From an uncultured Clostridia bacterium (lineage in GTDB: Bacteria; Bacillota; Clostridia; Christensenellales; UBA1242), in the NCBI GenBank assembly GCA_944381235.1, contig CALWKI010000069.1, forward strand, positions 1 through 56,448: a stretch of 56,448 bases of DNA, written 5' to 3'. Below the pieces are notes generated by a model, which worked only from the letters and a program-made list of their open reading frames with translations, had not been told where the DNA came from and did not search any database. Shown here piece by piece: positions 1-19,826 of the stretch. Both the position numbers and the translations under genes were made by a program. Within the stretch, counting starts at the first letter, position 1, and each line of letters begins with the position of its first letter.

Positions 1-327
1 ATAACTATTTTTTTCACCAATCAAAGTAGGAATTGAAGTTGCAAACCATACAAGCAACCAAACAAGCACTAGAGACGCAACTATTGCAACTGCAACACGA
101 ATAAGTGCTCCTTTCGCCTCTTTTGCCTTATCTGCAGTTTCTGCCCTTGCAAGTTTTACACCTAAAATGATAACCCAAATAGCACCTGCAATAGCAACTA
201 CTATAGTAATTGGTATAATTAAATCATCTAAAACTTCAACTATTGACTTAAGCCAACCAAGTTTAGATTCTTTTCCAAATTGCGAATCTATTGCACCCTG
301 GAAAGGGCCTCCAAGAAAATTAAACAT
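1..327 (-). CDS. Small two-helix membrane protein, VirB2/TrbC-like (conjugative pilin-like). Its 3' end lies beyond the window start.
   Basis: Hand translation of the minus strand from ATG (complement 325-327), preceded by GGAGGAAGT (328-336): MFNFLGGPFQGAIDSQFGKESKLGWLKSIVEVLDDLIIPITIVVAIAGAIWVIILGVKLARAETADKAKEAKGALIRVAVAIVASLVLVWLLVWFATSIPTLIGEKNSY. The frame is open to position 1. Two hydrophobic helices are separated by a short K/A/E-rich loop. The gene is divergent from a T4SS coupling protein. The listed + ORF 167..361 is its antisense shadow. Confidence 0.55.
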   Translation of the reverse strand, partial: MFNFLGGPFQGAIDSQFGKESKLGWLKSIVEVLDDLIIPITIVVAIAGAIWVIILGVKLARAETADKAKEAKGALIRVAVAIVASLVLVWLLVWFATSIPTLIGEKNSY

Positions 328-544
328 ACTTCCTCCAAAAGAAAATCTATTACTGTTTTGAGTTTAGCACAATAAAAACAAAATACCAAACAAATTTAGC
401 AACTTTTTTTATTTTTTTTGAAAAATTTTTTTATCAATAATATTTTGCGAAAAATTTCTTTTTTTATTTGTCTTATTTTTATTAATTGTTTATACTTATT
501 TAAACATCAAATATTCATATTTAAGGATTTTACATGGAGGAGCA

Positions 545-2557
545 ATGAAAAAGTTACTAATTAGAATTTTGCTTTTTATACCTATAATAGGAATTTGCTA
601 CTTACTTGGTCTTGCAATGACCTATTTTTTCACCTATGGAGGAGAAGGTTCTTTTGATATAGGACTTCTTTCTCAAGGAACATTTACTTTGGTTCCGGTA
701 ATCGTTGGTGGAGGAATTTACCTTATATATTTTTTAAACAAATTACTCGATGTGTCAAAACCAGACAAAGCAAAGCCAGGGTCAAAGAATAAAGAAGGTA
801 AAGAAGTTGCACAATATTTTGATTCTAGATGGATAACTGAAAAAGAACTCAAAACTGAAAAAAAGTTTATGTATGCCACATGGAACACGATTAGAAGCAG
901 CAAAGACGGAATACTACTTAGAAGCGAACTGAGAAAGAACAATCTAGAAATTAATATGTACCAGCCAATTCATGCGCTTATTATTGGTACAACTGGTACT
1001 GGAAAGACGCAAAAATATATAATTCCGACCATTCAGATTATGTCTTCCACTAAAACAAAGCCTAGTTTTGTCATTGCCGACCCAAAGGGCGAATTATATG
1101 AAAAAAACAGTCATAAACTAATTGAAGAAGGCTATGAAGTAAAAGTATTTAACCTAAGACAACCATTTTCGTCAGTTAAGTGGAACCCGCTTGACAACGC
1201 ATATGAACTTTATCACAGGGCGCATCACTTGCACGATTTTGTTAAAGTACATTCAGGCGTCAATCCGGCTGATCTTGGGCTCAAGATAATAAGTAGTGAG
1301 TACAACTACGAGTGGTACGAATATGGTGGAGTTGCTTATCCAAACAAACAAATACTTGACGAGGACCTTGAATCTAAAAAAGCAGAATATATTGACCAAG
1401 CAGAAAATGACCTAAGAGAAATAGCAACCATCCTCTGCCCTATTAAAAATGAAAAAGATCCAAGTTGGGAAAGAGGTGCGCAAGAAATGATATTAGGTAC
1501 AATGCTTGCCATGCTTGAAGATAGTTTAGACGAAAGACTAAATATGACGCGGGATAAGTTTAATTTCTACAATTTACGTAAAATTGTGACTTATAAAGAC
1601 ACTGACCCAGACAATCCATACAAGACACTTAGACAATATTATGCAGGTAGAGACAAATTTAGTAAAGTGCCGGGGCTAGTTAGTGGGGCAATTAACAATG
1701 CACCTAGTACAACTAAGAGTTATATGGGTATAGTAACAGGAAGTCTTGGAGTATTTAACGATAATGGTATGTGCTTTGCGACAAGTGAAAATGAAATGAA
1801 TTTTGATTCATTTGGTGACAAACCTACTGCCCTATTTATCATTATTCCAGACGAAAAAGAGTCAAGGTGGGGTATTGCAACTATGATGATTTCACAACTT
1901 TACAAAAAACTTGTAGACCTTGCAAACAACTACCCTAACATGATGTTACCAAGGCCTGTATATTTCCTGCTTGACGAGTTCGCAAATCTTCCAAAGATAG
2001 AAAAAATTGATACAATGATTACGGTAAGTCGTAGTAGAAATGTATTTTTCTCACTTGTTGTTCAGTCTTTTAGCCAATTAAACGCAAAATATGGGGATGA
2101 CGTCGCACAAACCATTAAAGGTAACTGTCCAATAAAAATATTCATTGGTACAGACGATAGAGTGACGTGTGAAGAGTTTAGTAAACTATGTGGAGATATG
2201 ACGCTTGAAATTTCGTCCACCTCTGAAAGTAAACAAAAAGACGAAAAAGGAAAAGAAAATCCAAACAAGACGACAAGTTTATCTACTGCCTCTCGTCCAC
2301 TTATTTATCCAGACGAACTTGGACACTTAGGAGACAGCGGTGGCACGAGTGAAATCATTATTAAAATTCTTAACGAGTTCCCTATGAGAATAAAATCTAC
2401 TGCTTACTGGGCAACCCCTATGTTTGACCATATGAAAGCATCAAGCGGATATGTGCCAAGTAGGTCACTTAATGAGGCAAAAATAAGTTACAATATTTCA
2501 GATAGAAATCAAATTGTTTTAAAACCTAGACCTATGATTGACATGAGTGATTTTTAA
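545..2557 (+). CDS. Type IV secretion coupling protein (VirD4/TraG family T4CP ATPase)
   Basis: 670 aa. Two N-terminal TM helices. Walker A is IIGTTGTGKTQKYIIPTI (nt ~982-1009), followed by the ADPKGELY motif. Walker B is VYFLLDEFANLPKI (nt ~1959-1982). GGAGG lies 4 nt upstream of the ATG. This is the typical VirD4/TraG/TraD architecture. Confidence 0.88.
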   Translation: MKKLLIRILLFIPIIGICYLLGLAMTYFFTYGGEGSFDIGLLSQGTFTLVPVIVGGGIYLIYFLNKLLDVSKPDKAKPGSKNKEGKEVAQYFDSRWITEKELKTEKKFMYATWNTIRSSKDGILLRSELRKNNLEINMYQPIHALIIGTTGTGKTQKYIIPTIQIMSSTKTKPSFVIADPKGELYEKNSHKLIEEGYEVKVFNLRQPFSSVKWNPLDNAYELYHRAHHLHDFVKVHSGVNPADLGLKIISSEYNYEWYEYGGVAYPNKQILDEDLESKKAEYIDQAENDLREIATILCPIKNEKDPSWERGAQEMILGTMLAMLEDSLDERLNMTRDKFNFYNLRKIVTYKDTDPDNPYKTLRQYYAGRDKFSKVPGLVSGAINNAPSTTKSYMGIVTGSLGVFNDNGMCFATSENEMNFDSFGDKPTALFIIIPDEKESRWGIATMMISQLYKKLVDLANNYPNMMLPRPVYFLLDEFANLPKIEKIDTMITVSRSRNVFFSLVVQSFSQLNAKYGDDVAQTIKGNCPIKIFIGTDDRVTCEEFSKLCGDMTLEISSTSESKQKDEKGKENPNKTTSLSTASRPLIYPDELGHLGDSGGTSEIIIKILNEFPMRIKSTAYWATPMFDHMKASSGYVPSRSLNEAKISYNISDRNQIVLKPRPMIDMSDF

Positions 2558-2582
2558 TTTTAAATTTAAAGAGATTATATAA

Positions 2583-2613
2583 AGAGAGTACAAAAAAGTA
2601 TTCTCTTTTTTTT
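2583..2613 (+). terminator. Rho-independent terminator after the T4CP gene
   Basis: Stem agagagtac (2583-2591) pairs with gtattctct (2598-2606), with one G-U pair. Loop is aaaaaa. A T7 run follows (2607-2613). Confidence 0.7.
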
Positions 2614-2761
2614 GTATCAAAAATAAAAAACATTATCTATTTTATTTTGAAAAAAAATTTCAATATGTTAATATGTAAATATTAATATTATTATTAAATA
2701 TATTATTATGTTTTGTGGAATAATAAAATAAAGAAACTAAAGAGTAAAAGAGGTAAAAAGA

Positions 2762-5700
2762 ATGAACAAAACAAGGATAAAAGTTGTTGCTTTTAGTTTA
2801 ATAATGCTAGTTTTTAGTTGCTGTTTTATTTTCTTAAATGAAAGTAAGACTAACCCGCTTGGTGAGAGAAAGGAAGTTATGGCGTCCTATCAAACGGGAG
2901 ACACATATTTTTCTGATACAGAAAACACTTCAAACAGTACCCTTATTGAAAATGGATATATTCCCTTTTCCCTTTTTACTAGCGTTGAATATGCAGGTAA
3001 TGCGGGATATAGCATAACCGACTACTATCCTGAATTTACCACAAGTGTAAGAAACAATACATACTACTACGAAATGACAGAGGATTCTGTCCCATACATT
3101 CTTTTATCCTCAAAATCTGGTACGACGGCAGACGATATTTTAACAACTCTTTATAACTCTACGCTTCACTTTAGGTTTAACGATATAAACGCAAAGACTG
3201 ACCCAGGAATTAACTATGGCAAAATTAGCGAACGTGGTCAAATGCAAATGGCTGTGACTATTAGAAATTCGCCAACTGACGACCCTATTGTCCTTAGTGC
3301 GAGCCCTGACTATGTAATTGCCGAAGAAGACAACATGTATTCATTTGCAGTAAATTTGCAAGAACTTATACTCAATGGTGCGACAAATGAAAACGCGGAG
3401 TGTCCTGAACTAGCGCTAAGTGGTGGAGACGTTGGAATTGGTGAGGAAGATCAACAAGAATACCTAGGCGGTAATGGCACAAACAACGACGTATCTGCAA
3501 GAACTGGTCTTTATACATTTACCATTAGTTATAACTACACCTCATCAATAAGTGGACAATTTGTTTCCAACAACTGTGTATTTGAGATGTCTGTTTATGT
3601 GGTTGACTATAGTACATATATTACAGAAAATCAAAATCCACTAACCTTTGAAAATACAGACGTATATACAGTCGAAAATGAAACTTTTACAAAAGAATAT
3701 CAAATTTATAACTACAACTATGAAAATGCACCAGTTGTAAACTATGACGCATCAAAGTTTGCTCTTAACTTTACCTTTAAAGTTGGTGGAGATGACAATA
3801 CATCTAATGTTTATCATTTTAATTACGATAATTTCGTTGTTGATCACGAGGATGGCCGCACGGGTATTGTAACTTTAAGTTGCGAAGAAAATGGCAACAC
3901 CTATTCTTTTTACACCTATGACGACGGAGACGCGGAAAATGGCACACAATATCTCGCTAAATTTTATTTAGATGATTTTGAAAAAAATTACATAATGGTA
4001 AACCAATCATACTTTAACACCTCCGTTTTTCAAGGTATATACGAATTTGAACTTGACTTACTTACTCAAGGTGACGGCAGTGTACCATACACACACGTTG
4101 ACAAAAATTTATTTAGCGAAGAGATACAAGAGAGTTTGACATACGAGAGACTTATTATCTTTGGCTACGACCTAAGGTATGAGGACAAGGATACCTCTTC
4201 CCCAACCTACAATCAAGTATTACCTTTAGTTAATGACTACACACATACAACTATTGCATCTTATAATGCTATGACAAATGGACTAGATGAAACTGAAGAT
4301 GAAACTGAAGTCGGTAATCTCCTGTCTATCCCAAGCCTTATTGCAACTACGAACATTACACCTCTTAGATTCCATAATTATGGCTCGCTTACAGATTACA
4401 CGGCGACTTACAGAAGATTTGACTCTTTCCAAATAAGTGACGAAGAAATTTTAAACACTATAAACGGCATGACACTTGCTGAAATTGATGATTACATTGC
4501 AAAAGACGATTCAACTTACTCTCAAGAATTTCAAAACATTACTGTTGCTGGCATTTATCTTATGAAACTAGAATACTCTATTGATGTCCCAGTACCACTC
4601 GTAGGAGACGACAATACCCCAATCAAGAATATTACAGGCTGCCAGTATGTCTTATTTAAAATTGAGTCCGGTTTACAATCTCTTTATATCCAAGGGATAG
4701 AGGGTGACACGGCATACGACTTTGTCAGCGCAACAAACAAAGATGTAAGGGTCGGAATTGAGGTAAGAAATAACCTTTTCTCTAATCCAATAAGTGTAAG
4801 TTACACATATGCACAAGATTATCAAAATACGTCCATGTCAGGGACGCTATCTCTAAAAAGAGGTGAAGATGGTGAACTTGAAACCTTTACAATTAATAAT
4901 AAAGAGTATTACTATTATGTTATAAATGGAGCACTTGACTATATATTTACAAAAAATGGTAGATATACTGTTACTATACGCAGCACTGGAAGCACAGCAA
5001 AAAGTTACGGCTTTAGTATTGATAAAGAAGATATTTCTGACATTCAAGTAAATAGCGTAGTACAATCTAGTCTTGGAAATTATGTAAAGAGTAATGAAAT
5101 TACAAGTTCAAATATCTATGGGTTTGATTATATTGATAAAAATCTTTATGTGACAGACTCCGCGTTTACAGTAGGCTGGGCTCCAAAGAGGAGTGGAGTT
5201 AAAGAGTATGTTTCTATTTACGTTATGGATCTAAAAAGAGGAGATAGCGCGACATCTTCTTCCCTATTTAAGCAAACAAATGGTGACTACTGGCTTACAA
5301 ACAATTATTACTTTGACGCTTTGAAAACTGGAGACAGTTCTAATTATCTTAATAGTTACAATTTAACAACCCTTGAGGCAAATAGTTATTTCTTTAGACC
5401 GGGACTTTACTATTTCTTTATCTACGACGACGCAGGAAATTATTCTGGAATTACAGTACTTGTTGACGACACCTTACCTCAAATTGCACAAGGTAGTTGG
5501 AGTGGAGTGCCGGAAGAGTCTACTTGGGAAAATTCCTATTCCCCAACAACAAATCCAAATAATTTTGTAAACTCAGATACTGTCCTTTATTTTGGAACAC
5601 ATAAGGCACTTAGTTTACCACTTCAGAAAAGTTCCACAGGGGAAAACTTCTTTGAAAACGAAATAACTTTACAAATAACAGATAGAAGTTACACTAACGC

Positions 5701-8700
5701 GTATGACCTGACAAATAATGGCGCACCTGTCACAAAAGAAAACATTAATATAAATTTTTACAAAGATGTTTTACTTGCTTTAACAAATTATATCAAAGAA
5801 ACAGATGGCGGGGACTTATTTAATCTTTCTTGGGCTGAAGAAGAAGATAGGTTAACATATTACCTTCTTCTTGAAAACACTTTAGTCAATTACTCATACT
5901 TCCCAGTTGATGTTAGTCTTACTCCAAGTTCAGGTACTTATAGCCCAGCACCTGTAAGTGTTGCGCTATACTTAAATAATTCTAATGCGACATTTAATGG
6001 CGAGGCAGATTATGTATTTTCTTTACTTAACCAAAATGGACTTCAAATAGATAGAGAAGTTCATATGAGTTTAGATAATGTAAGAAGTTCGTTTTATGCG
6101 TATAACTCTCCTGAAGATAGATTTTATATAAGAAAAAATGCTGGGACAAATCTTAATTCATTAATTTTTGAATATACAATTTTAAACAATGATTTGTCTG
6201 AATATTACGAAATTGAAAGTCTCTACTATAGTTACTATCCTTTTGCACTAGACGAGAGTGACGCTAATTATTCCCTGTCTTCCTATCCATTCTCATCTGT
6301 CGCAGTTGAAGAGGACACTCCTCTTACCGCCACCTCTCTTGACGGCATTACTTACACAACAAGCACAATAAATCCCGACTATTCGTCAAGTGAATATGGG
6401 ATAACAGAACCTGGAATGTATGTGGTAACTCGAGTTTATAGAGGTGGTCCATATAACTTAGTCAATGGTGAGTATGTTGAAACAGACACAGGCTATGGCG
6501 GAACTCATTACCTAGGCGATGACGGCAACTACTATCCTCTCTTCTCTCTTGATCCAATGACAAAAAGTTATACTGTTTATGTAGACCATAATGGAATAAT
6601 TAGTTCTACTTACTTAAGTGACGGCATAACGCGCGAAGTCGGAGATAATATTAGTATTTCTTTAAATGACGACACAAATTACTCATATACATTTAAAGAG
6701 TTCCTCACAATGACAGGAAATCGCGCACTTGTTACAAATGAAGTACCTATCAAAATAAATATTCCTTTCAGCAAGTACTTTAAGTATGCAGAAAATGGAA
6801 CACTAAATTACGTTTATAGCGCACTTAGTTTTTCAAAACTTAACGTCGAAATTGTTTACACTAATACATCTGGCGTTCAATATACCTACACAATAGACGG
6901 CTATGATAGTAGTACTGGAATGTGCACTAGTTCTATGCTCGTTAGCACATCTAATCCAAACGGACACTTAATATTCCAAGAACAAGGAAGTTACACTATT
7001 AGAATTACGGATAACACGGGATACACGTTATCAAGTACATCCTCTACTAATCTTAATGTAAATCCAACTAGTCTAGAGTTTAGCTTTGAGATTAGCCATA
7101 CTTCCCCATCTGCTACTGCATATTCATATATTTACAATTCAATTACAGATAGGTTTGAACAAAATATACAAAATGACGAGTACGGTACACATATTTATGC
7201 AGTTAACGCAACAAACGAGGTAATAAATGGTGAACGCAATAGATTTTACTTAGTGTGGCAAGATGATAGAACACCTTATATGTCAAAAGTAAATAATTTA
7301 AATATCAACTACATTATAAATAGTCAAGCAAGCAATTTTAACATAGATTTTAGTAGATATGACCTAAATGAAATAGCAGAACAAAATTTGGCAATTTTAT
7401 TAAGTGACGCAAATTCTAGTTTAACAGTTCTCGCAGAAAACTCAGTTAATTTAGACTCTTTCCTATTTTACCTTACAGTAGACTACTACGACGCAAACAA
7501 TCCTTATGAGGTTTATGATGGTGAAAACTATTATAGATATGTGTACACTTTGAATTTTGGGCTTGGTGCGGAATGTGTTTATGAAGTAACACTAAGTTAT
7601 GACAATACTAGTTCGTTTGCGTTTAAGAGTACAACTTATGACGTATCTATTGATAGAACAAAGCCAAATACAAATCTTGACAACTTAATTAATAGCGAAG
7701 ACTTTTTAAGGACATATTATTCTAGTTCAATAGAAAGTTTTAAAGAAGAAAAATTTGATATCAATAATTTATACACACTTCCTTCCGTCCTAACCTACAC
7801 ATTCGGAGTTAATACAGACTATGTGTTAAATTACAATGAAGAAGAGACAGTCCCTTACTTTTATGTAAGGTCTTACAACAAATATAACGGAGAATACGCT
7901 AGCATTACTCCAGACCTTGCAAATACTGAATACTATCAAAACGAAGATATTTTTGGTAGATATCCAAAATTCACTGAAACATCTCTTACAAATAATATTG
8001 TAAATATTGGGGATAATGTGTGGTATCTTGTTGAATATTCAAACGACTCCTTGTACTCATTAATTGCAAATACTTTGGGCGTAGTACCAAGCGGTTACTA
8101 CGAAATTATAGAGAGAGACTACGCAGGAAATTATAGGACTTTTACAATTTATTTTGCCTCGCAAGACTCGTCAAGTTATGATATCCTTAGACTTGATGGA
8201 CGAGACGAAATTAGAGAAACTTTTGAAAGTTCGACAGGTGACAACCTTACTGCAGAGGCTTTCTTTACACTAACTCAGTTATCTTCAAGATTAGGCTGGG
8301 GTGTTGTAAAGCTAAGAAATGAAACCTTAAATCTAGACTTTGATACACGTATTTATTTGACACCTGAAAGTAATCTTAATTCAACTCTTCTTGAAAGAAT
8401 TAACACTTTCTTAAGCGGTGGCGGAGATGAAATAAATATTAATTGTAGATATAGTTTCACTTTATCAAAATACAACTCTTCCTTCCCACCAGTTGTCAAG
8501 TCTGTAAGCGTTATTACAAACGAAGACAATGCAAGGCTTAGCGCTCCTACTATCACAGAAGTTCCAAACATTGAAACTGGCTTGTCAACATATACTTTAA
8601 CCCTCCCTGCTTATTCAACAACTTCTGTTTTATACTTAACGAGTTTTGATTTATATGCATTTTCCAATTCAACTGGGGCTTGGGAACTAACTCAATATTC

Positions 8701-11338
8701 TTATGACGACAGGGACGAGATAAGATTAAATAACCCAATACGAGGTTTAAGCGCGGGTGTTTATAGAGCCGTTTATATGGACAACTATAATACTAGTTCG
8801 TACGAATACATATTGTATGTAGGTGAATATCGGTTAGAAAATTTTGAAGACCAATACAATTTTAGTTATAACTATGTAATTGATAATAGTACTACAACTT
8901 ACTACACAGGAGGAGATGTCACTGTCACATATGAAGGTAATATCTATTCAGTTTATGTAAATGGTATTTTGTATTCGGGCACCTCTCACGAGTATCAACC
9001 AGAAAGTTTGCAACAAAACAATTTAAAACGCTTTGACCTAACAAGTGATTTTACCTACGACAATATTCCTGCAAATCAAAGTGTTGGAGGTACGACCGAA
9101 TACATTATAGAGTATAGAGATATAACAAATGGTCAAACGCAAAAAGTAATGCGAATAACTATTTTTGATATGCTACCAGAAATACTACTTACAAACAATG
9201 ATGATGAAAACGATGAAATATCTTCAACTCTTGAAGAAAGCGATTCACAAATTACAAATTCTAGCGTTAGAATTAACTATGGATACATAACTGGTTGTGA
9301 GTACGAAGCACTTAACGATTCAGACACTAACGAAGTCACAACTGCAACTCTTTACACGAGAGACGCAAACGGGCTTTATAGAAACGGAATTACAATACCT
9401 CGAGGAAATAGTTCTGATAGAAACCTTGTAAGTGAAGAAGGATACTACAGACTTGATATTACAAATAGAATACTTGGAAACACAAGATCGGTTTATTTTG
9501 TAATTAGGCTTGGAGACTTCCCTTTATACACAGTAAGTGATGGAGACACAACTCTTTCCCCTTCCCCATATGAAACACTTAATATTACTTTAAATAGTGC
9601 TGGTAATCTTGTGCAAGACACAAACGGCAATCAAAATAGCATTCTTTACACAATATATAATGCTTTGACCTCACTTCGTGACAATGGAAGTTTTGATAGC
9701 AATACTGATAGAAATGAAAGAGAGTACAATATGCTTGTTGAAGCAATGGGCTTTAGAAACGGAATATATTCTCAAACAAACATTGGGATTGCAAACGTGT
9801 TAAATCTTAGCCATTTCTATACCGTAAATAATGCTAGCATTACCTATAATAGTAATATTAACCTTGACATAATTGAGTTTACTTTTGAAAATAGCATTTT
9901 ACAAAATTTCTTTATACACGGAGATGGAGGATCAAACCCAACTCCTACAGGAGACGATGTAGACTACTGGACAACAATTTATCTTGTTTACTCACTCAGT
10001 GGACCAATTAGAATTGAATTTTTTGCAGTTACAAAAGTACCTAGATCAACCAATCTCATTGGAAACACAATTTATTACAATGAAACTGAATCAATACTTA
10101 TTCGTGAAAATGAGCGAGAACGAGACCTAACAAATTCAAATGGGATTGTGAATAATGAGTTGTCTCTTCAATGGAACAGTTTAAATCCTTCTCAAACAAC
10201 ATATTGGTACAATCAAGGTAATTTCATCTATGTAATGGAGAGATATGGAGTTGATGAAGATTATGTCGCGCTTGATTATACATATAACTCGACAAACGGA
10301 AGAAATTCATCAATCTTGCAGGGTGCTGGAACACATAGACTTATGTTTAGAGACATTGCGGGAAATACGCATAGTTTTTCAACTAGTTCAATGGCAATCG
10401 ACCCAAATGTTTATACAATTAATATAATTACTGAGGTCATCTACTACATTAACTATAATAATGAGGATCTAAACCCTATTCAATACGGAATATTTAATGA
10501 TAGTTTAAGTTTGGTAATTGATAGCACTTATCTTGAGAAAATATCAAGGTACAACGTTAGTGTAGTTAGAAATGGAACGCCTTATAACGCTTATACTAGA
10601 GAAGACAATGTTTACACCTTCACCTCTCCTGGCAGATATGTTGTAACTCTAACAGGTTCGTATGGAGGAAACGATTTAAATACTGCAACATACAATTTCA
10701 CTTTAGTGTCAACAAATTCTGCACGTCTTGCATTTGAATTTACACAAGTTCTAGATTACAAAATTATTCAAGTAATTAGAAATAATGAGGACATTACAGA
10801 TAACTTTGCTGTAAATGGAGAGATCTCTTCCCTATTTATATCATCTAGCGATTCAAGAAGTGGAAATGGTTACTATACTGTAACATTAAAATACGGAGAA
10901 AGAGACGACGAAATACTTGAATTTTCCTTCTTTATTAACGACTATGAACCAACTTTGTCTAGTAACGTTGCGTATGGAGAAACAACAACTTCAGAAATTG
11001 TAATATCATACAACCCTGCTTACATTTACGGACAACTTGGTGTTTGCTATATTAATGTTTTGATTTACAATGAAGACAGCGGGACTTTCTATCAATATGG
11101 TAGATTTACAATTAACGAGACCTCAACCGACAGCCTCTCTTCCTTTAGTTTGACACAATCTAATTCGTATTTCATACAAGTTGAAACTGAAAGCGGAAAC
11201 ATTGTATCTAGTTTTAGAGTAAATAAAACCGACCCACTAAATACCTTTGCTATAATCATTATTGTTATCGCAGTAGTTGCAACTATTGTACTCGTAATTG
11301 TTGTTATAAAACTTAGGACGAGAATGCGCGTCAGATAA
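2762..11338 (+). CDS. Giant (2,858 aa) surface protein with an N-terminal signal/anchor helix, a C-terminal TM anchor and many divergent beta-sandwich-like modules
   Basis: The ORF is 8,577 nt and uninterrupted in an AT-rich genome. An AGAGGT RBS is present. The N-terminus is MNKTRIKVVAFSLIMLVFSCCFIF. The C-terminus is FAIIIIVIAVVATIVLVIVVIKLRTRMRVR, a TM helix plus a basic stop-transfer segment. There is no LPXTG. Composition is Y/N/T/S-rich. Recurring module endings of the type G-Y-x-hydrophobic-T ... D-x-(A)GN ... hydrophobic-D-x-T-x-P, e.g. YFFIYDDAGNYSGITVLVDDTLPQI, YEIIERDYAGNYRTFTIYF, HRLMFRDIAGNTHSFSTSSMAIDPNV, YDVSIDRTKPNT, ITIFDMLPEI, FFINDYEPTL. Confidence 0.85.
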   Translation: MNKTRIKVVAFSLIMLVFSCCFIFLNESKTNPLGERKEVMASYQTGDTYFSDTENTSNSTLIENGYIPFSLFTSVEYAGNAGYSITDYYPEFTTSVRNNTYYYEMTEDSVPYILLSSKSGTTADDILTTLYNSTLHFRFNDINAKTDPGINYGKISERGQMQMAVTIRNSPTDDPIVLSASPDYVIAEEDNMYSFAVNLQELILNGATNENAECPELALSGGDVGIGEEDQQEYLGGNGTNNDVSARTGLYTFTISYNYTSSISGQFVSNNCVFEMSVYVVDYSTYITENQNPLTFENTDVYTVENETFTKEYQIYNYNYENAPVVNYDASKFALNFTFKVGGDDNTSNVYHFNYDNFVVDHEDGRTGIVTLSCEENGNTYSFYTYDDGDAENGTQYLAKFYLDDFEKNYIMVNQSYFNTSVFQGIYEFELDLLTQGDGSVPYTHVDKNLFSEEIQESLTYERLIIFGYDLRYEDKDTSSPTYNQVLPLVNDYTHTTIASYNAMTNGLDETEDETEVGNLLSIPSLIATTNITPLRFHNYGSLTDYTATYRRFDSFQISDEEILNTINGMTLAEIDDYIAKDDSTYSQEFQNITVAGIYLMKLEYSIDVPVPLVGDDNTPIKNITGCQYVLFKIESGLQSLYIQGIEGDTAYDFVSATNKDVRVGIEVRNNLFSNPISVSYTYAQDYQNTSMSGTLSLKRGEDGELETFTINNKEYYYYVINGALDYIFTKNGRYTVTIRSTGSTAKSYGFSIDKEDISDIQVNSVVQSSLGNYVKSNEITSSNIYGFDYIDKNLYVTDSAFTVGWAPKRSGVKEYVSIYVMDLKRGDSATSSSLFKQTNGDYWLTNNYYFDALKTGDSSNYLNSYNLTTLEANSYFFRPGLYYFFIYDDAGNYSGITVLVDDTLPQIAQGSWSGVPEESTWENSYSPTTNPNNFVNSDTVLYFGTHKALSLPLQKSSTGENFFENEITLQITDRSYTNAYDLTNNGAPVTKENININFYKDVLLALTNYIKETDGGDLFNLSWAEEEDRLTYYLLLENTLVNYSYFPVDVSLTPSSGTYSPAPVSVALYLNNSNATFNGEADYVFSLLNQNGLQIDREVHMSLDNVRSSFYAYNSPEDRFYIRKNAGTNLNSLIFEYTILNNDLSEYYEIESLYYSYYPFALDESDANYSLSSYPFSSVAVEEDTPLTATSLDGITYTTSTINPDYSSSEYGITEPGMYVVTRVYRGGPYNLVNGEYVETDTGYGGTHYLGDDGNYYPLFSLDPMTKSYTVYVDHNGIISSTYLSDGITREVGDNISISLNDDTNYSYTFKEFLTMTGNRALVTNEVPIKINIPFSKYFKYAENGTLNYVYSALSFSKLNVEIVYTNTSGVQYTYTIDGYDSSTGMCTSSMLVSTSNPNGHLIFQEQGSYTIRITDNTGYTLSSTSSTNLNVNPTSLEFSFEISHTSPSATAYSYIYNSITDRFEQNIQNDEYGTHIYAVNATNEVINGERNRFYLVWQDDRTPYMSKVNNLNINYIINSQASNFNIDFSRYDLNEIAEQNLAILLSDANSSLTVLAENSVNLDSFLFYLTVDYYDANNPYEVYDGENYYRYVYTLNFGLGAECVYEVTLSYDNTSSFAFKSTTYDVSIDRTKPNTNLDNLINSEDFLRTYYSSSIESFKEEKFDINNLYTLPSVLTYTFGVNTDYVLNYNEEETVPYFYVRSYNKYNGEYASITPDLANTEYYQNEDIFGRYPKFTETSLTNNIVNIGDNVWYLVEYSNDSLYSLIANTLGVVPSGYYEIIERDYAGNYRTFTIYFASQDSSSYDILRLDGRDEIRETFESSTGDNLTAEAFFTLTQLSSRLGWGVVKLRNETLNLDFDTRIYLTPESNLNSTLLERINTFLSGGGDEININCRYSFTLSKYNSSFPPVVKSVSVITNEDNARLSAPTITEVPNIETGLSTYTLTLPAYSTTSVLYLTSFDLYAFSNSTGAWELTQYSYDDRDEIRLNNPIRGLSAGVYRAVYMDNYNTSSYEYILYVGEYRLENFEDQYNFSYNYVIDNSTTTYYTGGDVTVTYEGNIYSVYVNGILYSGTSHEYQPESLQQNNLKRFDLTSDFTYDNIPANQSVGGTTEYIIEYRDITNGQTQKVMRITIFDMLPEILLTNNDDENDEISSTLEESDSQITNSSVRINYGYITGCEYEALNDSDTNEVTTATLYTRDANGLYRNGITIPRGNSSDRNLVSEEGYYRLDITNRILGNTRSVYFVIRLGDFPLYTVSDGDTTLSPSPYETLNITLNSAGNLVQDTNGNQNSILYTIYNALTSLRDNGSFDSNTDRNEREYNMLVEAMGFRNGIYSQTNIGIANVLNLSHFYTVNNASITYNSNINLDIIEFTFENSILQNFFIHGDGGSNPTPTGDDVDYWTTIYLVYSLSGPIRIEFFAVTKVPRSTNLIGNTIYYNETESILIRENERERDLTNSNGIVNNELSLQWNSLNPSQTTYWYNQGNFIYVMERYGVDEDYVALDYTYNSTNGRNSSILQGAGTHRLMFRDIAGNTHSFSTSSMAIDPNVYTINIITEVIYYINYNNEDLNPIQYGIFNDSLSLVIDSTYLEKISRYNVSVVRNGTPYNAYTREDNVYTFTSPGRYVVTLTGSYGGNDLNTATYNFTLVSTNSARLAFEFTQVLDYKIIQVIRNNEDITDNFAVNGEISSLFISSSDSRSGNGYYTVTLKYGERDDEILEFSFFINDYEPTLSSNVAYGETTTSEIVISYNPAYIYGQLGVCYINVLIYNEDSGTFYQYGRFTINETSTDSLSSFSLTQSNSYFIQVETESGNIVSSFRVNKTDPLNTFAIIIIVIAVVATIVLVIVVIKLRTRMRVR

Positions 11339-11390
11339 TTCAAAATTATTCTTAAATGTACTTATTCTTTCATTTTAAATCTATCAAAAT

Positions 11391-11426
11391 AAAAATCACC
11401 TAGGAAAATAATCTTAGGTGATTTTT
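11391..11426. terminator. Bidirectional hairpin terminator between the convergent giant gene and the Rho-like gene
   Basis: aaaatcaccta (11392-11402) pairs with taggtgatttt (11415-11425). The A-run before and T-run after allow it to work on both strands. Confidence 0.7.
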
Positions 11427-11467
11427 AACTATAATAAATCTTAACCTCAAATTTAGTTAAATATTAT

Positions 11468-12619
11468 CTAATTTTTATAATCAACAAACATACAATTATA
11501 ATTTTCAAGTTCACTTTTAAGTGTATTTAAACTTTCTGACATTCCATTGTCCTTAAGTAGTGCTACAACCGTAACGCTTGCCCCATTACTATATGTGCCC
11601 GCATATCTCATAAGACGGGAAACCAAGAACAGTGAATACGACTTAATGTCGCCTATGTTACCATTATTTAAAAAGTTTTGATACTTCACCATTTTCATAA
11701 GTTCGTTGACAAATATAACTACTTTTTTACCTTGCTCAATAAGTCTTGAAAGTCTTGAAAAACAAATTTCACAAGTGAGTGCATTCATTTTTGCCGTATC
11801 ATCAAGTAATGTATAAAAACTTTCACTAAAATTAAGATTATACTCAGGCAATGCGTCAATGCACAAATTCACAAAGTGATATTTGTCCACACATCTTTCT
11901 CTTATCTCCTGAAGTATGTCCATATATTTATTAAAAGAAGAAACACTTAAAACTATTCTCTTTCCTTCTTCTACGTCTCCAACTATTTCACTAAAATATA
12001 TATATTTATCGCTTCTTTGAACACTAATCTCGGCTATATCTTGTGTTTTAGTAAAATCTGATAAATTCTTAATCTTAGTTGCAATTCTTGCGTTATAATT
12101 AATACTATTTTTATATACACATTTTATATAGTCTGAATCTTTTAGATTGTTTTGATATACTAGTTCAGCAGGCACAATAATAGCATTTTCTATCTTTGCG
12201 ACCCTTCCATTTTGAAAAAGGTAAAAATTTTCTCCTATTTGCTTTAAATACCCCTCACCATCTCTAAAATCAAACTTTTCATCGTACTTAAATGGTGCAC
12301 TTTGATATGAATCATTCAGTTCTGCATAATTTTCTTCTTGTGGTGAAGAAAAGTCGTAATCACGCAAATTATTTGAATCTATCACGTCGCTATATTTTGT
12401 CGGTCCTTGATATAAATATGGGTTTCTTGCCTTTGGAGGCCTGCCTTGGCGATTTTTTGGTACTTCTGGTTGTTTTTCACCACTTAGAATTTGGAGGATT
12501 TTTTCAATGAGTTCATCCTTCTTACAAGTGGTAGGAGATAAAACCCCCAAGTCTCTTGCGAGGTTCCTCAAATCAAAGATTCCCATATTCCTCATTGTTA
12601 TTTCGTCAATTTTCTTCAT
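11468..12619 (-). CDS. Rho-like protein with a Rho N-terminal helix bundle, an OB-fold-like segment and a degenerate, truncated RecA-type domain (apparently ATPase-dead)
   Basis: 383 aa. [44 protein letters not shown] aligns with Rho_N. [18 protein letters not shown]...[21 protein letters not shown] aligns with E. coli GDGVLEILQDGFGFLR...[35 protein letters not shown] aligns with GQRGLIVAPPKAGKT, so GKT is lost. [10 protein letters not shown] aligns with [29 protein letters not shown] aligns with [29 protein letters not shown] aligns with GSLTIIATAL. The protein ends about 80 aa short of a full Rho. Confidence 0.6.
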   Translation of the reverse strand: [383 protein letters not shown]

Positions 12620-12740
12620 TTTTCCCCTTTTTTTACGGTATTAGTATACATTAAGTTAAATTTAATGTAAAGAAAAAGTTATCTTTACAAAATTGCAAAT
12701 TTTGGAAGTTCATTTTAGGACATAAATTAGTTTTTCTATT

Positions 12741-12776
12741 AAAAAATAGGAAGAATTTTTATCCTTCCTATTTTTT
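12741..12776 (-). terminator. Hairpin terminator downstream of ypeB, symmetric and usable on both strands
   Basis: aaaaaataggaag (12741-12753) pairs with cttcctatttttt (12764-12776). Confidence 0.7.
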
Positions 12777-12796
12777 GTTTTTTTAAACTTTTAATT

Positions 12797-14191
12797 TTAA
12801 AGTACAAGTTCTCCTTCGTTTGTTTGCACCACTCTAAGAACTCTTACCTGTTTGCCAGTATAAGCATCAATATACAAGTAATATTTATATCCATAGTATT
12901 CACCGCTAAATTCATATGCTAAAGTTTCTCCAACAAAGTCAAGTGGTATAACACATAATTTTTGACTCTCAACCTCTAAATTTTTACTAATAAGTTCCCT
13001 TGCTTCGCTTTCAGTAAGTTGTGCAATAAGGTCTTCTCTTTCAACGTGGTTGTAAGCATAGGAGGAGGCTTCCCAGCCAATAATCGTATTGCTATTTAAA
13101 TCTACCTTTACCTTTATTAAGTCTGGATACATAATAATATCATCAACAACAGGTGCAAGGTTAATATAGGCGGTTTTCTCAGTTTTTGCACTCCAAACAC
13201 ATTCCATATCGAGAATATCTAAACTTTTTGCAAAGTCTTTTGCTTGAGTAATAGCTGAAAGTAATTCTTCACTCTTGTCGTTTACATCGTCCATATCAAC
13301 ACTTTCGTCGCTTTCAGTACTATTTTTTTCTATCTCACTTGAAGAAGAATTTGCAGTTTCATTTCCACTACTGACATTTGCGCTCATAGTAAGCAAAAAC
13401 TTTCCTTTTTTAGTAATTTGAATATAGTACATTCTATTATTCGAATTCAGTGTAAAGTCATATGTTTCAAATCTACCTGTTGCCTTTCCAAGATAAACAA
13501 TATCAGTCGCATCGCTAAAAATGCTTTCTACATATTCTTTTGCTTTAGTCTCTGTTACTTCAAAATCTTTTAGTCCCTTAATAGTTTTGTTAATTGTCGA
13601 ATCTGAGAATGGTCCATCATATATAAGACTTGGGAATTGCATTGTATCAGTTGTAAATGAGGTAAAGTTAGATGAAAAATTATTTATTTCTCCGTCTATC
13701 CCCAAATTATCAGAAATTCTATACCCGTTCATTATTTTTTCAATAATTTTATTAAGTTCAATTTTAATGTTATTAATACTACTATGAACACTCTCAAGTG
13801 TTTCAATGTCATTTTCACTAATTACCCCGTCATTATATGTTATTAGAGATGAACAATAACCATTTAATTTATTCATAAACTTTGATGTCTCATACACTAC
13901 ATTTGCACTCACAGGAAGAAGACTTAAAGAATTCTCCGCCTCTCCTGTTTGCTCTTTTATATTAGATAAAATTTTTTGTTGCGAAGTTGAATCATTTGAC
14001 ACAAGGAGTTTGCTAACCTCTACCTCCATATTATTCACATTGTTTACTAAATCATAAAAAGACCTTTGATAAACATTTTCTAAATTTGCGGACGTAGAGT
14101 TTAGAGTGCTTGTTGTCGAAAATAGCGTTAGTCCAAGTACGAGCACTATACAACTTAAAATTGAAACTGTGATTATAAATGCTTTTTTCAT
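12797..14191 (-). CDS. ypeB: Germination protein YpeB
   Basis: 464 aa with an N-terminal TM helix. LENVYQRSFYDLVNNV and FPSLIYDGPFSD are YpeB-type motifs. The C-terminus is PepSY-like. The gene sits immediately downstream of sleB, as in the sleB-ypeB operon. Confidence 0.85.
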   Translation of the reverse strand: MKKAFIITVSILSCIVLVLGLTLFSTTSTLNSTSANLENVYQRSFYDLVNNVNNMEVEVSKLLVSNDSTSQQKILSNIKEQTGEAENSLSLLPVSANVVYETSKFMNKLNGYCSSLITYNDGVISENDIETLESVHSSINNIKIELNKIIEKIMNGYRISDNLGIDGEINNFSSNFTSFTTDTMQFPSLIYDGPFSDSTINKTIKGLKDFEVTETKAKEYVESIFSDATDIVYLGKATGRFETYDFTLNSNNRMYYIQITKKGKFLLTMSANVSSGNETANSSSSEIEKNSTESDESVDMDDVNDKSEELLSAITQAKDFAKSLDILDMECVWSAKTEKTAYINLAPVVDDIIMYPDLIKVKVDLNSNTIIGWEASSYAYNHVEREDLIAQLTESEARELISKNLEVESQKLCVIPLDFVGETLAYEFSGEYYGYKYYLYIDAYTGKQVRVLRVVQTNEGELVL

Positions 14192-14211
14192 TTCCTTTCT
14201 ATCTCCTTATA

Positions 14212-15066
14212 TTAAAGTGCGAAAACATGCTCGCCTATTGTTACAACAGTTTGTCTAGACCAAATCCAACTACTAGTTGCGGTCGCTGGATTATAGTAGA
14301 ATAAACAACCATACGTTGGATCCCAACCATTCATAGCATCTCTTGCAGCATTATACGCTGTTTGGTCTGGCTCAAGGTTAATTTGTCCATCACTTACTGC
14401 AGTAAACGCATATGGCTGGTAAATAACTCCAGCTATTGTGTTAGGAAATTCTGGGCTTTTAACCCTATTAAGTATTACTGCCGCCACCGCAACTTGTCCA
14501 ACATATGGCTCCCCTCTTGCCTCAGCGTAAACACATTTTGCAAGCAAGTATAAATCACTTGATGACTGAGTTGAACTGTTTGTAATTCCAAGTGCTGACG
14601 CCGTCTTTGCACCTACAATTCCGTCAACAGTTAATCCATAGTCTCTTTGAAAGTTTCTTACCGCGCTAATGCTTTTAGTTCCAAATATTCCATCAACAGT
14701 CCCCGTATAATATCCTAAATTTTTTAGTTTCTTTTGAATTTCGGTCACTGAGTAATTTCCATTACTACCAGTATTAAGTCCAAGAGAAGTTAAAGTGTTA
14801 GTCCCGACAATTCCATCAACTGTTAGGCCATAGTCTCTTTGAAATCTCTTTATTGCGCTAACACTCTGACTGCCAAGAATCCCGTCAATACTTCCATTAT
14901 AGTAACCCAATTCTTTTAACCTCTGCTGAATTTTTTTATTTTCCGATGATGTCGCTGTGTAAAGTGCAATGGGCGCCGTACGTGGCAAAATAAAATTCGT
15001 GAGAGCGTAGGAACAACCTATTATAAAAAACAAACATAAACTTAAAACAACTAAATACCTTTTCAT
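14212..15066 (-). CDS. sleB: Spore cortex-lytic enzyme SleB (two PG_binding_1 repeats plus a Hydrolase_2 domain)
   Basis: 284 aa. Two repeats of the type LKELGYYNGSIDGILGSQSVSAIKRFQRDYGLTVDGIVG. The C-terminal domain reads LLAKCVYAEARGEPYVGQVAVAAVILNRVKSPEFPNTIAGVIYQPYAFTAVSDGQ. Confidence 0.9.
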   Translation of the reverse strand: MKRYLVVLSLCLFFIIGCSYALTNFILPRTAPIALYTATSSENKKIQQRLKELGYYNGSIDGILGSQSVSAIKRFQRDYGLTVDGIVGTNTLTSLGLNTGSNGNYSVTEIQKKLKNLGYYTGTVDGIFGTKSISAVRNFQRDYGLTVDGIVGAKTASALGITNSSTQSSSDLYLLAKCVYAEARGEPYVGQVAVAAVILNRVKSPEFPNTIAGVIYQPYAFTAVSDGQINLEPDQTAYNAARDAMNGWDPTYGCLFYYNPATATSSWIWSRQTVVTIGEHVFAL

Positions 15067-15591
15067 TTATCCTCCAAAAAAATTTCTAATTATTTCAAGG
15101 ATTCTGCTTTTATACTTATACCCCGCGTTAGAATTTAGAAAACAAAGTGGAGGATAGACCACGCACCACCAGTTATCTCCCTTTGCCTCACCAAGCCCCA
15201 CAATTAATGCGTCATAGTATCCACTTTCAAGCGTCACGTTATCATAGCTTCTAACTGGAAAATATTCATTTTTGATTTTAGCAGAACTCTTGTAATCAAA
15301 GTTATTTTGTGCAAGAATTTTGTTTGCTATACTCTCAATGTTAGATAAATTTTGATTTATTGCGTATGTAAACTCACTTTTCGTTTTACATGAGGAAATA
15401 ATAGGGGTTAAAAACTCCACAATTTCGTCTTTAATCTCGTATTTTACCGCTTGGTCAACATCTGAATTGCTATTTGCTCTAATATGTATTCTTAAATATT
15501 CAGTATGATATGTCTTGGTACTGGTTAACCCCACAATAAACATAACTACAACCGTAGCACATAAAAAAAATATGGCAATAAATCTTTTCAT
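15067..15591 (-). CDS. spoIIR: Stage II sporulation protein R
   Basis: 174 aa with a signal/TM helix. YLRIHIRANSNSDVDQAVKYEIKDEIVEFL and GDNWWCVVYPPLCF are hallmark SpoIIR motifs. Its stop TAA directly abuts the sleB ATG (TAAATG). Confidence 0.9.
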   Translation of the reverse strand: MKRFIAIFFLCATVVVMFIVGLTSTKTYHTEYLRIHIRANSNSDVDQAVKYEIKDEIVEFLTPIISSCKTKSEFTYAINQNLSNIESIANKILAQNNFDYKSSAKIKNEYFPVRSYDNVTLESGYYDALIVGLGEAKGDNWWCVVYPPLCFLNSNAGYKYKSRILEIIRNFFGG

Positions 15592-15653
15592 CTTTTACTC
15601 TCCTATTACGAAAAGAATTATTTACCATACTTTTTATTTTAAACTTATTTTTT

Positions 15654-17171: not shown

Positions 17172-17197
17172 AATTTTACCCCCTTTTTAAGAAGCAA

Positions 17198-17240
17198 TAA
17201 AAAATTGCTTTATTCATTTGTTATATGAATATAAAGCAAT
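17198..17240 (-). terminator. Terminator downstream of veg
   Basis: On the minus strand, attgctttat (rc of 17231-17240) pairs with ataaagcaat (rc of 17204-17213) across a 17-nt loop. A ttttt run follows. Confidence 0.6.
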
Positions 17241-17275
17241 CTTTCATTTTATGCTAATTTTTTTGAAGTAATTTG

Positions 17276-17521
17276 CTATTTTAGCTTTTCTATTATCTTG
17301 ACGTCACCACAAAGAACATCGGAATATGAACAGGTTACGTTTTTTAGTAATGTGTTATTTAAAATCTTCACAGTAAAGACAGAGGGATAAATATTCTCAA
17401 TAACACCTTCGTAAATATCTATTTTTTTTCTACCTCTGTTTATTGTTATTCCTATACCTTTACCTTTTATTGAGGTAATTTTATCCCTTATTTCATTTAA
17501 ATTTATTGTATTTCGTTGCAT
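17276..17521 (-). CDS. veg: Veg protein
   Basis: 81 aa. GKGIGITINRGRKKIDIYEGVIENIYPSVFTVKI...CSYSDVLCGDVKI matches B. subtilis Veg (GGRRK...YPSVF...SYSYADIL). Confidence 0.9.
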   Translation of the reverse strand: MQRNTINLNEIRDKITSIKGKGIGITINRGRKKIDIYEGVIENIYPSVFTVKILNNTLLKNVTCSYSDVLCGDVKIIEKLK

Positions 17522-17590
17522 AAATTATTATCTCCCGTCTAATTATAGACTAGAATTAATAATTTTATACAAAATCATATAACGGAAAAA

Positions 17591-18082: not shown

Positions 18083-18391
18083 AACAACTCCATTTATATA
18101 TTACAGCATTTTATTATCACATTTTTTGTTATAAGACAAGCATTTTTTTATAGTTTTTTAAAATTATTTTATAGTCTATGTTGTTCGTTTTCTTTTATAC
18201 ACTATTCTTAGGTTTTTGACATTTTGGATTTTTTAATTTGACTAATAAAATATATTAAATACTATATAAAAACACTACTTTTATTTAATAGGTAAAAATT
18301 CACTCATTTAAAACAACAAAAATAAATTATCACCTTAAACTCATAGATAATATGCAGTAAGTATATAAATGGTTACCCATAAACCTAGCTT

Positions 18392-19774: not shown

Positions 19775-19801
19775 CAAAAAAAGGAAGGGTTAACCCCTTC
19801 C
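19775..19801 (-). terminator. Terminator of the lipoprotein gene
   Basis: ggaaggg (19783-19789) pairs with cccttcc (19795-19801). The A-run at 19776-19782 becomes a T-run after the hairpin on the minus strand. Confidence 0.75.
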
Positions 19802-19826
19802 TCGATTAATAGACTATTTTATTAAC

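Follow-up and report, generated by a model that had tools for sequence, protein, structure and literature searches.

A vertically inherited type IV secretion cluster and its giant surface protein neighbour in uncultured gut Clostridia

The left end of a 56,448 nt stretch of DNA from an uncultured Clostridia bacterium (GenBank assembly GCA_944381235.1, contig CALWKI010000069.1; the whole stretch is referred to as the window) carries a gene for a coupling ATPase of a type IV secretion system (T4SS), followed by a gene for a giant surface protein of 2,858 amino acids. This arrangement raises two questions: does the giant protein work together with the secretion system, and do both genes belong to mobile DNA? 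Gram-positive T4SSs have been described almost exclusively on plasmids and on integrative conjugative elements (ICEs), where LPXTG adhesins aid mating. The original prediction, made from the letters of the window, considered the two genes as one functional module on acquired DNA, with the giant protein as a mating adhesin or as a surface protein displayed by the T4SS. The analysis described here gives good support to a chromosomally fixed, vertically inherited and domesticated secretion system. With modest confidence, we infer that the giant protein is a Sec-exported, membrane-anchored contact fibre serving this system. The host is a low-GC spore-former that occurs in chicken-gut metagenomes.

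Only two open reading frames (ORFs) of at least 80 amino acids (aa) lie on the plus strand in the first 24 kb once antisense shadows are excluded, at 545–2557 and 2762–11338, and the spacing between them is 204 bp (2558–2761), as had been described. The first was predicted to encode the T4SS coupling ATPase, and this assignment holds. Its 670 aa product, a type IV coupling protein (T4CP) of the VirD4/TraG family, scored 171.9 bits for T4SS-DNA_transf, 120 bits for TraG-D_C and 91 bits for TrwB_AAD_bind in Pfam, and 291.7 bits against the NCBIfam equivalog "VirD4-like, CD1115 family" (cut-off 250). It has two N-terminal transmembrane (TM) helices (aa 4–22 and 46–64), a Walker A motif (GTTGTGKT) and a Walker B motif (FLLDEF), and shows a weak sequence match to the TrwB structure 1e9r. 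Among 27 distinct orthologues, Walker A is intact in 26 and Walker B in all. Judged by its sequence, the protein is a genuine member of the T4CP family.

T4CP and the giant gene form the right-hand end of a T4SS cluster of about 24 kb (~23.6 kb), the remainder of which lies to the left of the window. An exact look-up of the window T4CP in public assemblies gave no match, and the locus context was taken from homologues of the giant protein. The composition of the cluster was read from orthologous loci on longer contigs (L053, L002, L004 and L005; related loci are designated by L numbers throughout), and of this channel machinery the window itself holds only a pilin-like gene and the T4CP gene. 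Divergent from T4CP are one or two pilin-like genes and the genes for a 570–680 aa protein, a membrane protein of ~1,000 aa and a VirB4 of ~875 aa. Beyond VirB4 follow a variable ORF of 600–1,360 aa, two small ORFs, and then a Zn-ribbon/TM2 protein and MnmA. In L053, VirB4 reached 567 bits against the NCBIfam model "Mbov_0397 ICE ATPase", just below the equivalog cut-off of 590, and only 159 bits against the C. difficile CD1110 model. The ~1,000 aa protein of this locus has 8 TM helices and scored 111 bits against the MMCAP2_0566/Mbov_0396 model (cut-off 90). L053 also encodes two Mbov_0395-like pilin-like proteins and a 569 aa lipoprotein with the lipobox FFSAC, and the scores for Pfam T4SS_pilin (PF18895) were 21.2 and 17.7 bits, below the cut-off of 26.6.

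In the window, the divergent operon is opened by a gene on the minus strand at 1–327 (ATG at 327–325), the 3′ end of which lies beyond the window edge, and the operon extends further to the left. Its product is a candidate pilin-like or VirB3-like small T4SS protein of the Mbov_0395 family (CDS15 of the Mycoplasma ICE), with TM helices at aa 37–55 and 76–94 and a score of 29.7 bits (E 3.9e-7) against NCBIfam NF045849, under the cut-off of 40. Orthologues with 30–76% identity occupy the equivalent position in related loci, and the orthologue in L053 gave a weak match to Pfam T4SS_pilin. The AT-rich intergenic region between this operon and T4CP (328–544, read directly from the sequence) presumably holds the promoters of both divergent units; promoter-like hexamers at 418–446 and 468–496 are consensus matches only. 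A GGAGG motif is located 5 nt ahead of the ATG of T4CP.

Based on homology, the machinery of the cluster can be assigned to the monoderm MPF-FATA or Mycoplasma-ICE type, and is homologous to that conjugation channel, like which it would work. The closest family matches of the cluster proteins are to mycoplasma ICEs (MICE), namely ICEA of M. agalactiae and ICEB of M. bovis (conjugative channel module, CDS5 to CDS19). VirB4 resembles Mbov_0397 (CDS17), the 8-TM protein resembles Mbov_0396/MMCAP2_0566 (CDS16, VirB6-like) and the 2-TM protein resembles Mbov_0395 (CDS15). The order pilin-like protein, TM protein, VirB4 is the same, T4CP corresponds to CDS5 and the lipoprotein, by its position, to CDS14, and in neither system is a VirB1-like or VirB8-like gene recognised (PMC6030558; PMC12857230). 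CDS14 is a surface lipoprotein that is essential for mating (PMC6030558), and CDS16 of the mycoplasma ICE is VirB6-like (PMC12857230). In contrast to the cluster described here, MICE have a DDE transposase (CDS22) and are without a giant protein. Our cluster, which shows no such transposase and no sign of mobility, is fixed in location and vertically inherited in walled, spore-forming Clostridia.

The relation to MICE, and to the C. difficile CTn-type CD1115/CD1110 families, is one reason to suspect a still-mobile ICE that was acquired horizontally together with a mating adhesin. The head-on orientation of T4CP and the giant gene relative to their neighbours would fit such an element and had been read as a mark of acquired DNA, but this orientation is kept in every species. 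Both genes are on the lagging strand, and GC skew indicates nothing beyond that. By Pfam and NCBIfam, which detect recognisable families only, we found no relaxase, integrase or transposase domains in the cluster ORFs of at least 70 aa in L053. Between MnmA and the Rho_N-like gene that follows the giant gene there is no integrase or DDE transposase, and the search for att-like direct repeats around the cluster returned chance matches only (longest 12 bp, AT-rich). No homologue of the giant protein was found among the plasmids of PLSDB, in which the closest T4CP has 29% identity.

The distribution of the locus points in the same direction. Scanning the GTDB species representatives with the alignment of the giant proteins revealed 42 loci, all from metagenome-assembled genomes (MAGs) of uncultured gut bacteria labelled Clostridia or Christensenellales. 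The order of the right flank (Rho_N-like, YpeB, SleB, SpoIIR, SipL, Veg, Spo0A) is constant wherever a contig reaches it, and the order of the left flank (p80, Zn-ribbon/TM2, MnmA) is constant in most of the VirB4-centred loci reaching there; the insertion context of the cluster is identical in dozens of species. The distances of both proteins between 18 species correlated with those of the flanking core genes (Mantel r 0.83 for T4CP and 0.92 for the giant protein; 0 of 2000 permutations as high), and the nearest neighbour agreed with that of the core genes in 16 of the 18 species for T4CP and in all 18 for the giant protein.

Codon usage was equally inconspicuous: the distance to the core in relative synonymous codon usage was 0.092 for T4CP and 0.082 for the giant gene, at a range of 0.059–0.185 among core genes, and the GC content at third codon positions (GC3) of both genes is within the core range. 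Compared to a 99%-identical strain, synonymous divergence (dS) was 0.066 for T4CP and 0.049 for the giant gene, with 0.062 for YpeB and 0.048 for SleB. The ratio of nonsynonymous to synonymous divergence (dN/dS) was 0.05 for T4CP and 0.11 for the giant gene in this comparison, and 0.04 and 0.06, respectively, in comparison to the next species. Both genes are under purifying selection. A deviation in tetranucleotide composition at 2.5–12.5 kb was considered as a sign of foreign DNA, but this was rejected, since codon usage, GC3 and dS equal those of core genes and the deviation fits the extreme serine, asparagine, threonine and tyrosine content of the giant protein. The region is not recently acquired DNA. 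The original prediction had named a composition indistinguishable from the core, combined with conserved synteny, as speaking against it, and this is what we observed. As the cluster lacks a recognisable relaxase, integrase and repeats and follows vertical descent, it fails the tests for a mobile element. A still-mobile ICE is thus largely refuted and hardly tenable, and the different site of the cluster in one genome (L075 versus L098, see below) is compatible with an ancient insertion or a translocation.

If the cluster is part of the core genome, is the giant protein part of the cluster? T4CP and the giant gene are kept together in about 45 loci, including rearranged ones. Among the giant-centred loci with upstream sequence, T4CP is directly upstream in 31; in two the giant gene adjoins T4SS membrane genes with no T4CP in between, and in one there is no T4SS gene nearby. 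The former two are L038 and L046, in which the giant gene diverges directly from the T4SS membrane genes. Of the VirB4-centred loci with a full cluster, 15 show the N-terminus of the giant protein after T4CP and three, from deeper lineages, do not. The neighbourhood analysis that had been proposed as a check thus places the giant gene mostly beside T4SS genes, and a few deeper lineages separate the two. Since the whole region is syntenic and the gene order could simply be inherited, adjacency alone is weak functional evidence, and the rearranged loci carry the most weight. In the genome JAFUJK01, the YpeB flank and the MnmA/Zn-TM2 flank are adjacent with nothing between them (L098), and T4SS, T4CP and the N-terminus of the giant protein (E 2e-7) are found together on another contig (L075). 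T4SS, T4CP and giant gene behave as one unit here, as they are co-located away from the flanks. In L205 and L216, the pilin-like genes were relocated between the giant gene and T4CP, and all genes still form one cluster. The layout is the same in L226, where a 905 aa ORF at the position of the giant gene runs off the end of the locus; this ORF showed no match to the giant protein in tblastn.

The association with T4CP probably does not extend to a common transcript. A hairpin resembling an intrinsic terminator (2581–2616, plus strand; 11 bp stem, 6 nt loop and eight T residues; −12.4 to −13.5 kcal/mol, z −3.8) begins 24 nt 3′ of the T4CP stop codon. A hairpin with a T-run is present at this place in about 30 related loci (L001–L043), that is in nearly every species examined, although the hairpins differ in sequence between species and the spacing between T4CP and the giant gene varies from 180 to 690 bp. 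Because this terminator-like structure is conserved, T4CP and the giant gene most likely give rise to separate transcripts. T4CP looks like a monocistronic gene that diverges from the other T4SS genes and is shielded from the giant gene. The giant gene seems to have its own promoter: a promoter-like site (TTGAAA-16-TAATAT with extended TG; consensus match only) is located at 2647–2674 on the plus strand, and an AGAGG ribosome-binding site at about 2748. At the other end, the predicted bidirectional terminator was recovered. The sequence 11390–11427, which the giant gene (plus strand) shares with the Rho_N-like gene converging on it (minus strand), folds on both strands (−19.7 kcal/mol, z −7.4 on the plus strand; −17.1 kcal/mol, z −5.4 on the minus strand), no shuffled sequence folded as well, and A/T runs are present on both sides. 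The module that had been proposed therefore stands with regard to its conserved linkage, and as part of a larger T4SS cluster, but not as a single transcription unit. The association of T4CP and giant protein is real, and looser than an operon.

The giant protein (2762–11338, plus strand) has an N-terminal signal (aa 1–25, hydrophobic segment at aa 6–24), about 2,800 residues predicted to be extracellular, and a C-terminal anchor with a TM helix at aa 2831–2849. A Sec-type signal, with a basic n-region and a hydrophobic h-region, was found in 21 of 23 aligned members, and the two others are truncated gene calls. Since this signal is N-terminal, the giant protein, which had been called tail-anchored, is better described as a type I membrane protein with its bulk outside. 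The protein is acidic and rich in serine, asparagine, threonine and tyrosine, and a D-x-AGN motif recurs in it. It matches no family in Pfam or NCBIfam, and a profile of the giant family against PDB sequences gave a chance hit only, to a ribosomal protein (E 0.0085).

In order to get an idea of the fold, AlphaFold2 (AF2) models were built on a 23-sequence alignment of the family. The mean confidence (pLDDT) was 83.5 for aa 1700–2858 and 81.5 for aa 30–1180. The models are nearly all beta, a string of immunoglobulin (Ig)/FnIII/macroglobulin-like sandwiches with few helical inserts and the TM helix at the end. Foldseek searches with both segments returned generic multi-Ig arrays only, with ~10% identity and TM-scores of ~0.1: the top hit was the neck of the GhpA grappling hook (9flp, E 1e-16), and the others included contactins, alpha-2-macroglobulins, the S-layer proteins EA1 and HPI, SpyCEP and, at rank 49, the Ig-like domains of PrgB (8beg). 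No enzymatic, catalytic, toxin or lectin domain was found in these searches. Extrapolated from the models, the protein may have ~28–30 domains and form a fibre of ~100 nm, long enough to clear the wall. The modelled fold of an Ig-like array fits the role in adhesion or contact that had been proposed.

A homologue search for the giant protein retrieved 25 clusters with 99–32% identity, nearly all of ~2,800 aa. An exhaustive search of 1.84 billion representatives yielded 216 clusters (50% identity), of which 177 had E<1e-10; the full-length members are nearly all 2,300–3,200 aa long, with the matching region at their extreme end. When the C-terminal 409 aa were used in a word-index search, most of the results were fragments, and the exhaustive search is the better measure of family size.

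The most conserved part of the family is its C-terminus. In the window (11231–11335, plus strand) the protein ends with KTDPLNTF, a TM helix and KLRTRMRVR, i.e., DPLN at aa 2824–2827, the helix at about aa 2830–2849 and the tail at aa 2850–2858, in which arginine alternates with other residues (R-x-R-x-R-x-R). The consensus of the family is S[FY][RK][VI]x[KR]x[DE]PLN, a helix of ~22 residues and [KIL][LM]R[TKR][KR]M[KR][VI][KR]-COOH. This signature is kept in 47 distinct giant proteins (L005–L136) of 2,382–3,713 aa and down to 25% identity, and conservation climbs towards the C-terminus, with a mean identity of 69–78% for the last 60 residues versus ~43% overall. Among 9,510 ORFs in the fetched loci the signature is exclusive to the giant proteins. 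Models of LPXTG and other -CTERM sorting signals did not match the last 60 and 200 residues at E values up to 10. Sortase and exosortase signals have a similar three-part layout, while the signature of the giant proteins is confined to one family and may represent a new anchoring or docking module. The constant 9-residue cytoplasmic tail suggests a specific partner in the cytoplasm or membrane. The T4CP family recognises positively charged C-termini, such as those of VirB/D4 substrates in Agrobacterium, and the neighbouring T4CP would be the obvious candidate for this partner.

According to the reading that we favour, the giant protein would be exported by Sec through its N-terminal signal and held in the membrane by its C-terminal helix. 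The ~28–30 beta-sandwich domains would form a fibre of ~100 nm that reaches past the cell wall and could serve the T4SS as its arm for cell contact or adhesion. The best-conserved parts, namely the membrane-proximal domain, the TM helix and the arginine-rich tail of 9 residues, may couple it to machinery in the membrane, most plausibly the adjacent T4CP. Fibre length, adhesion role, docking of the tail to T4CP and the cargo of the T4SS, DNA or proteins, are the parts of this picture that go beyond the data. Several observations weigh against it. The terminator conserved between T4CP and the giant gene gives no support to co-regulation, Foldseek matched generic Ig arrays at TM-scores of ~0.1, and a tip domain for ligand binding did not emerge. 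Neither a peptidoglycan hydrolase gene nor a VirB8-like gene could be recognised in the cluster, and for a walled cell the machine may be incomplete. In the deeper lineages L224, L228 and L230, T4CP is followed by ordinary genes instead of the giant gene, which in the genome of L224 is on a separate contig (L045), and for the family member in L006 the 10 kb upstream are free of T4SS genes. Finally, synteny extends over the entire neighbourhood and takes in sporulation genes whose function is presumably unrelated.

An alternative reading is linkage through descent only, with the giant protein as an independent envelope protein, e.g., an S-layer-like coat or an adhesin for host, mucus or particles, within a stable gene order. 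We regard this as possible but less probable than a contact fibre. It would account for a conserved order that covers unrelated sporulation and housekeeping genes on both sides, for the terminator and apparent own promoter of the giant gene, for the unlinked genes in L224/L045, L228, L230 and L006, and for the Foldseek matches to EA1 and HPI. It also agrees with the situation in Caccopulliclostridium, where a non-homologous giant protein with Listeria-Bacteroides repeats is encoded downstream of the Rho_N-like gene. It is at odds with the rearranged loci (L075 versus L098; L038, L046, L205 and L216), in which the giant gene stays with the T4SS and not with the core flanks, and with a tail and TM helix that are conserved far beyond the needs of a passive anchor. 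Unrelated giant lipoproteins encoded after VirB4 in sister lineages, described below, moreover suggest a recurring pairing of T4SS ATPases with giant proteins. A much more remote alternative considers the giant protein as a substrate of the T4SS, or as displayed by it, with T4CP recognising the arginine-rich C-terminus. The R-x-R-x-R-x-R tail is indeed reminiscent of the C-terminal signals with positive charge that VirB/D4 substrates carry, and the gene adjoins T4CP. We consider this very improbable, and T4SS-dependent surface display was dropped from the original prediction, in view of the classical Sec signal that each of the 21 members with a complete N-terminus carries; the stop-transfer TM helix right before the tail indicates the topology of a Sec-inserted type I protein, and a chain of 2,858 aa with a predicted ~30 stable beta-sandwiches would be an implausible T4SS passenger.

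Extending the contact-fibre reading, we can envisage a core T4SS without relaxase, retained in a large uncultured clade of gut Clostridia, as a contact-dependent device for transfer between cells. The ~100 nm fibre would be its contact sensor, the invariant cytoplasmic tail of which docks on T4CP and gates secretion once the tip has bound a partner cell. The (D/E)PLN-TM-basic-tail signature would then be a new anchor between fibre and T4SS, and the giant lipoproteins next to lone VirB4 genes would be parallel solutions. This scheme is speculative and, as a whole, rather unlikely. The cargo of such a device might be chromosomal DNA, comparable to the chromosomal transfer of mycoplasmas, or effectors.

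Comparison to known systems helps to place the locus. The nearest conceptual relative is the T4SS of Patescibacteria/Saccharibacteria, a chromosomal MPF-FATA system without relaxase that was co-opted and is needed for epibiotic growth (PMC12102498). It has in common with the cluster described here a monoderm-type machinery that is encoded in the chromosome and widespread in its lineage, the lack of a relaxase close by, and small VirB2/T4SS_pilin-like proteins; phylum and lifestyle differ, and the T4SS_pilin match in our cluster is below threshold (21 bits versus 26.6). No adhesin was found in the study of Patescibacteria (PMC12102498), whereas the cluster described here has a putative giant fibre linked to it. 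PrgB of the Enterococcus plasmid pCF10, to which the giant protein had been compared, is likewise a large surface protein with Ig-like domains that is encoded with a Gram-positive T4SS. PrgB has ~1,300 aa. The giant protein is more than twice as large, chromosomal and vertically inherited, shows no LPXTG or sortase signal and no sequence homology to PrgB, and is anchored by a TM helix with (D/E)PLN and a basic tail. No polymer-adhesin domain was found in it by Pfam, NCBIfam, PDB sequence match or Foldseek (aa 30–1180 and 1700–2858). PrgB is thought to mediate contact of donor and recipient (PMC12857230). In this functional sense only the comparison is upheld: the giant protein is analogous to LPXTG adhesins such as PrgB, not a member of this group. 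GhpA of Aureispira is also an elongated multi-domain beta-sandwich protein, with a generic likeness in fold only (TM-score ~0.1, 10% identity). GhpA uses the type IX secretion system, and Ebh of Staphylococcus has a signal peptide and a C-terminal membrane anchor. Neither GhpA nor Ebh is known to be linked to a T4SS, and their secretion routes differ.

Our data show that many species of uncultured gut Clostridia have, as a fixed part of their core genome, a Mycoplasma-ICE-type T4SS without recognisable mobility genes. This T4SS is tied to an uncharacterised family of putative surface fibres of 2,400–3,700 aa, which end in a C-terminal anchor of their own. Should the link be functional, this would be the second monoderm conjugation machine, after that of Patescibacteria, to be co-opted lineage-wide, and the first for which a contact organelle is identified. 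Such a link would also offer a testable handle on cell interaction or DNA exchange in abundant uncultured gut Clostridia. For the annotation of MAGs it follows that T4CP or VirB4 does not always indicate mobile DNA.

The T4SS genes themselves appear to be scattered and fixed across a large clade. Scanning with a VirB4 profile detected at least 463 genome loci in uncultured Clostridia genomes. Eighty of these were kept (45–100% identity), nearly all labelled as uncultured Clostridia or other Bacillota. Many of the loci contain a lone VirB4 gene with no T4CP, pilin-like or VirB6-like neighbours; in Caccopulliclostridium, it follows SecG and RNase R. Such scattered genes are reminiscent of the dispersed T4SS islands of Rickettsia (PMC12102498). 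At least two families of giant surface proteins adjoin T4SS ATPase genes. In four loci (L184:12728-21607, L188:12651-21605, L201:12664-21606 and L208:12717-21608) the lone VirB4 is directly followed, on the same strand, by an ORF for a lipoprotein of 2,960 aa or more that runs off the locus, and no T4CP, pilin-like or VirB6-like gene is present within 10 kb. These lipoproteins share 27–33% identity with each other and are unrelated to the giant protein of the window by hhalign.

Genomes without the giant gene at this site show other arrangements. In the genus of Candidatus Caccopulliclostridium gallistercoris (L096:12774-21320; L069–L072) the slot after YpeB and the Rho_N-like gene is filled by an ORF on the opposite strand that encodes at least 2,849 aa, carries Listeria-Bacteroides repeats and is not homologous to the giant protein of the window. 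In outgroups, an orphan gene resembling T4CP, with 38% identity and the complete Pfam domains of a T4CP, is located just upstream of SipL-SpoIIR-SleB-YpeB (L100:4606-6669, L102:2614-4650, L103:1166-3193, L107 and L158). In L103 it is followed by the gene for a 1,015 aa protein with Flg_new and GLUG repeats.

Within the cluster itself, the ORF directly after VirB4 differs strongly between loci, both in length and in sequence (811 aa, p811, at L053:12908-15343; 961 aa in L049; 600 aa in L070; 1,363 aa in L075). It has no signal peptide, its C-terminal half is proline-rich, and p811 matched nothing in Pfam, NCBIfam or PDB. The product could be a substrate of the T4SS or a lineage-specific component of the channel. 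A relaxase was also considered, with nothing in its favour.

To the right of the terminator, all ORFs from 11468 to 24155 are on the minus strand and encode core functions (Rho_N-like, YpeB, SleB, SpoIIR, SipL, Veg, Spo0A, KsgA and TatD), in agreement with the original prediction. DnaE, UvrC, EF-Tu and other housekeeping genes follow farther to the right. With spoIIR, sipL, sleB, ypeB and spo0A as neighbours, and spoIIGA and a gene for a sigE-like sigma factor upstream of VirB4 in L188, a link to sporulation was considered, but nothing beyond adjacency supports it. The gene next to the giant gene (11468–12619, minus strand) encodes a 383 aa protein with a Rho_N domain and weak similarity to the RNA-binding part of Rho (30 bits against Rho models, cut-off 315). 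It converges on the giant gene in all related loci reaching there, apart from an inverted copy in L017. Some genomes without the giant gene have it as well, and it is probably not part of the giant/T4SS module.

No tRNA genes and no Rfam families at the gathering threshold were detected in the whole window, although ribosomal-protein leaders occur frequently in the EF-Tu/EF-G/rpoB-rpoC region that it contains. Amid the housekeeping genes, an 810 aa BspA-type leucine-rich-repeat protein is encoded at 38679–41111 on the minus strand (LRR_5, 372 bits); this is likely another surface protein that is unrelated to the T4SS and the giant protein. Three further ORFs on the minus strand, 19827–21257 (476 aa), 21514–22437 (307 aa) and 35460–36530 (356 aa), belong to no Pfam family, and genes of similar size are present at the positions of the 476 aa and 307 aa ORFs in related loci, e.g., L005.

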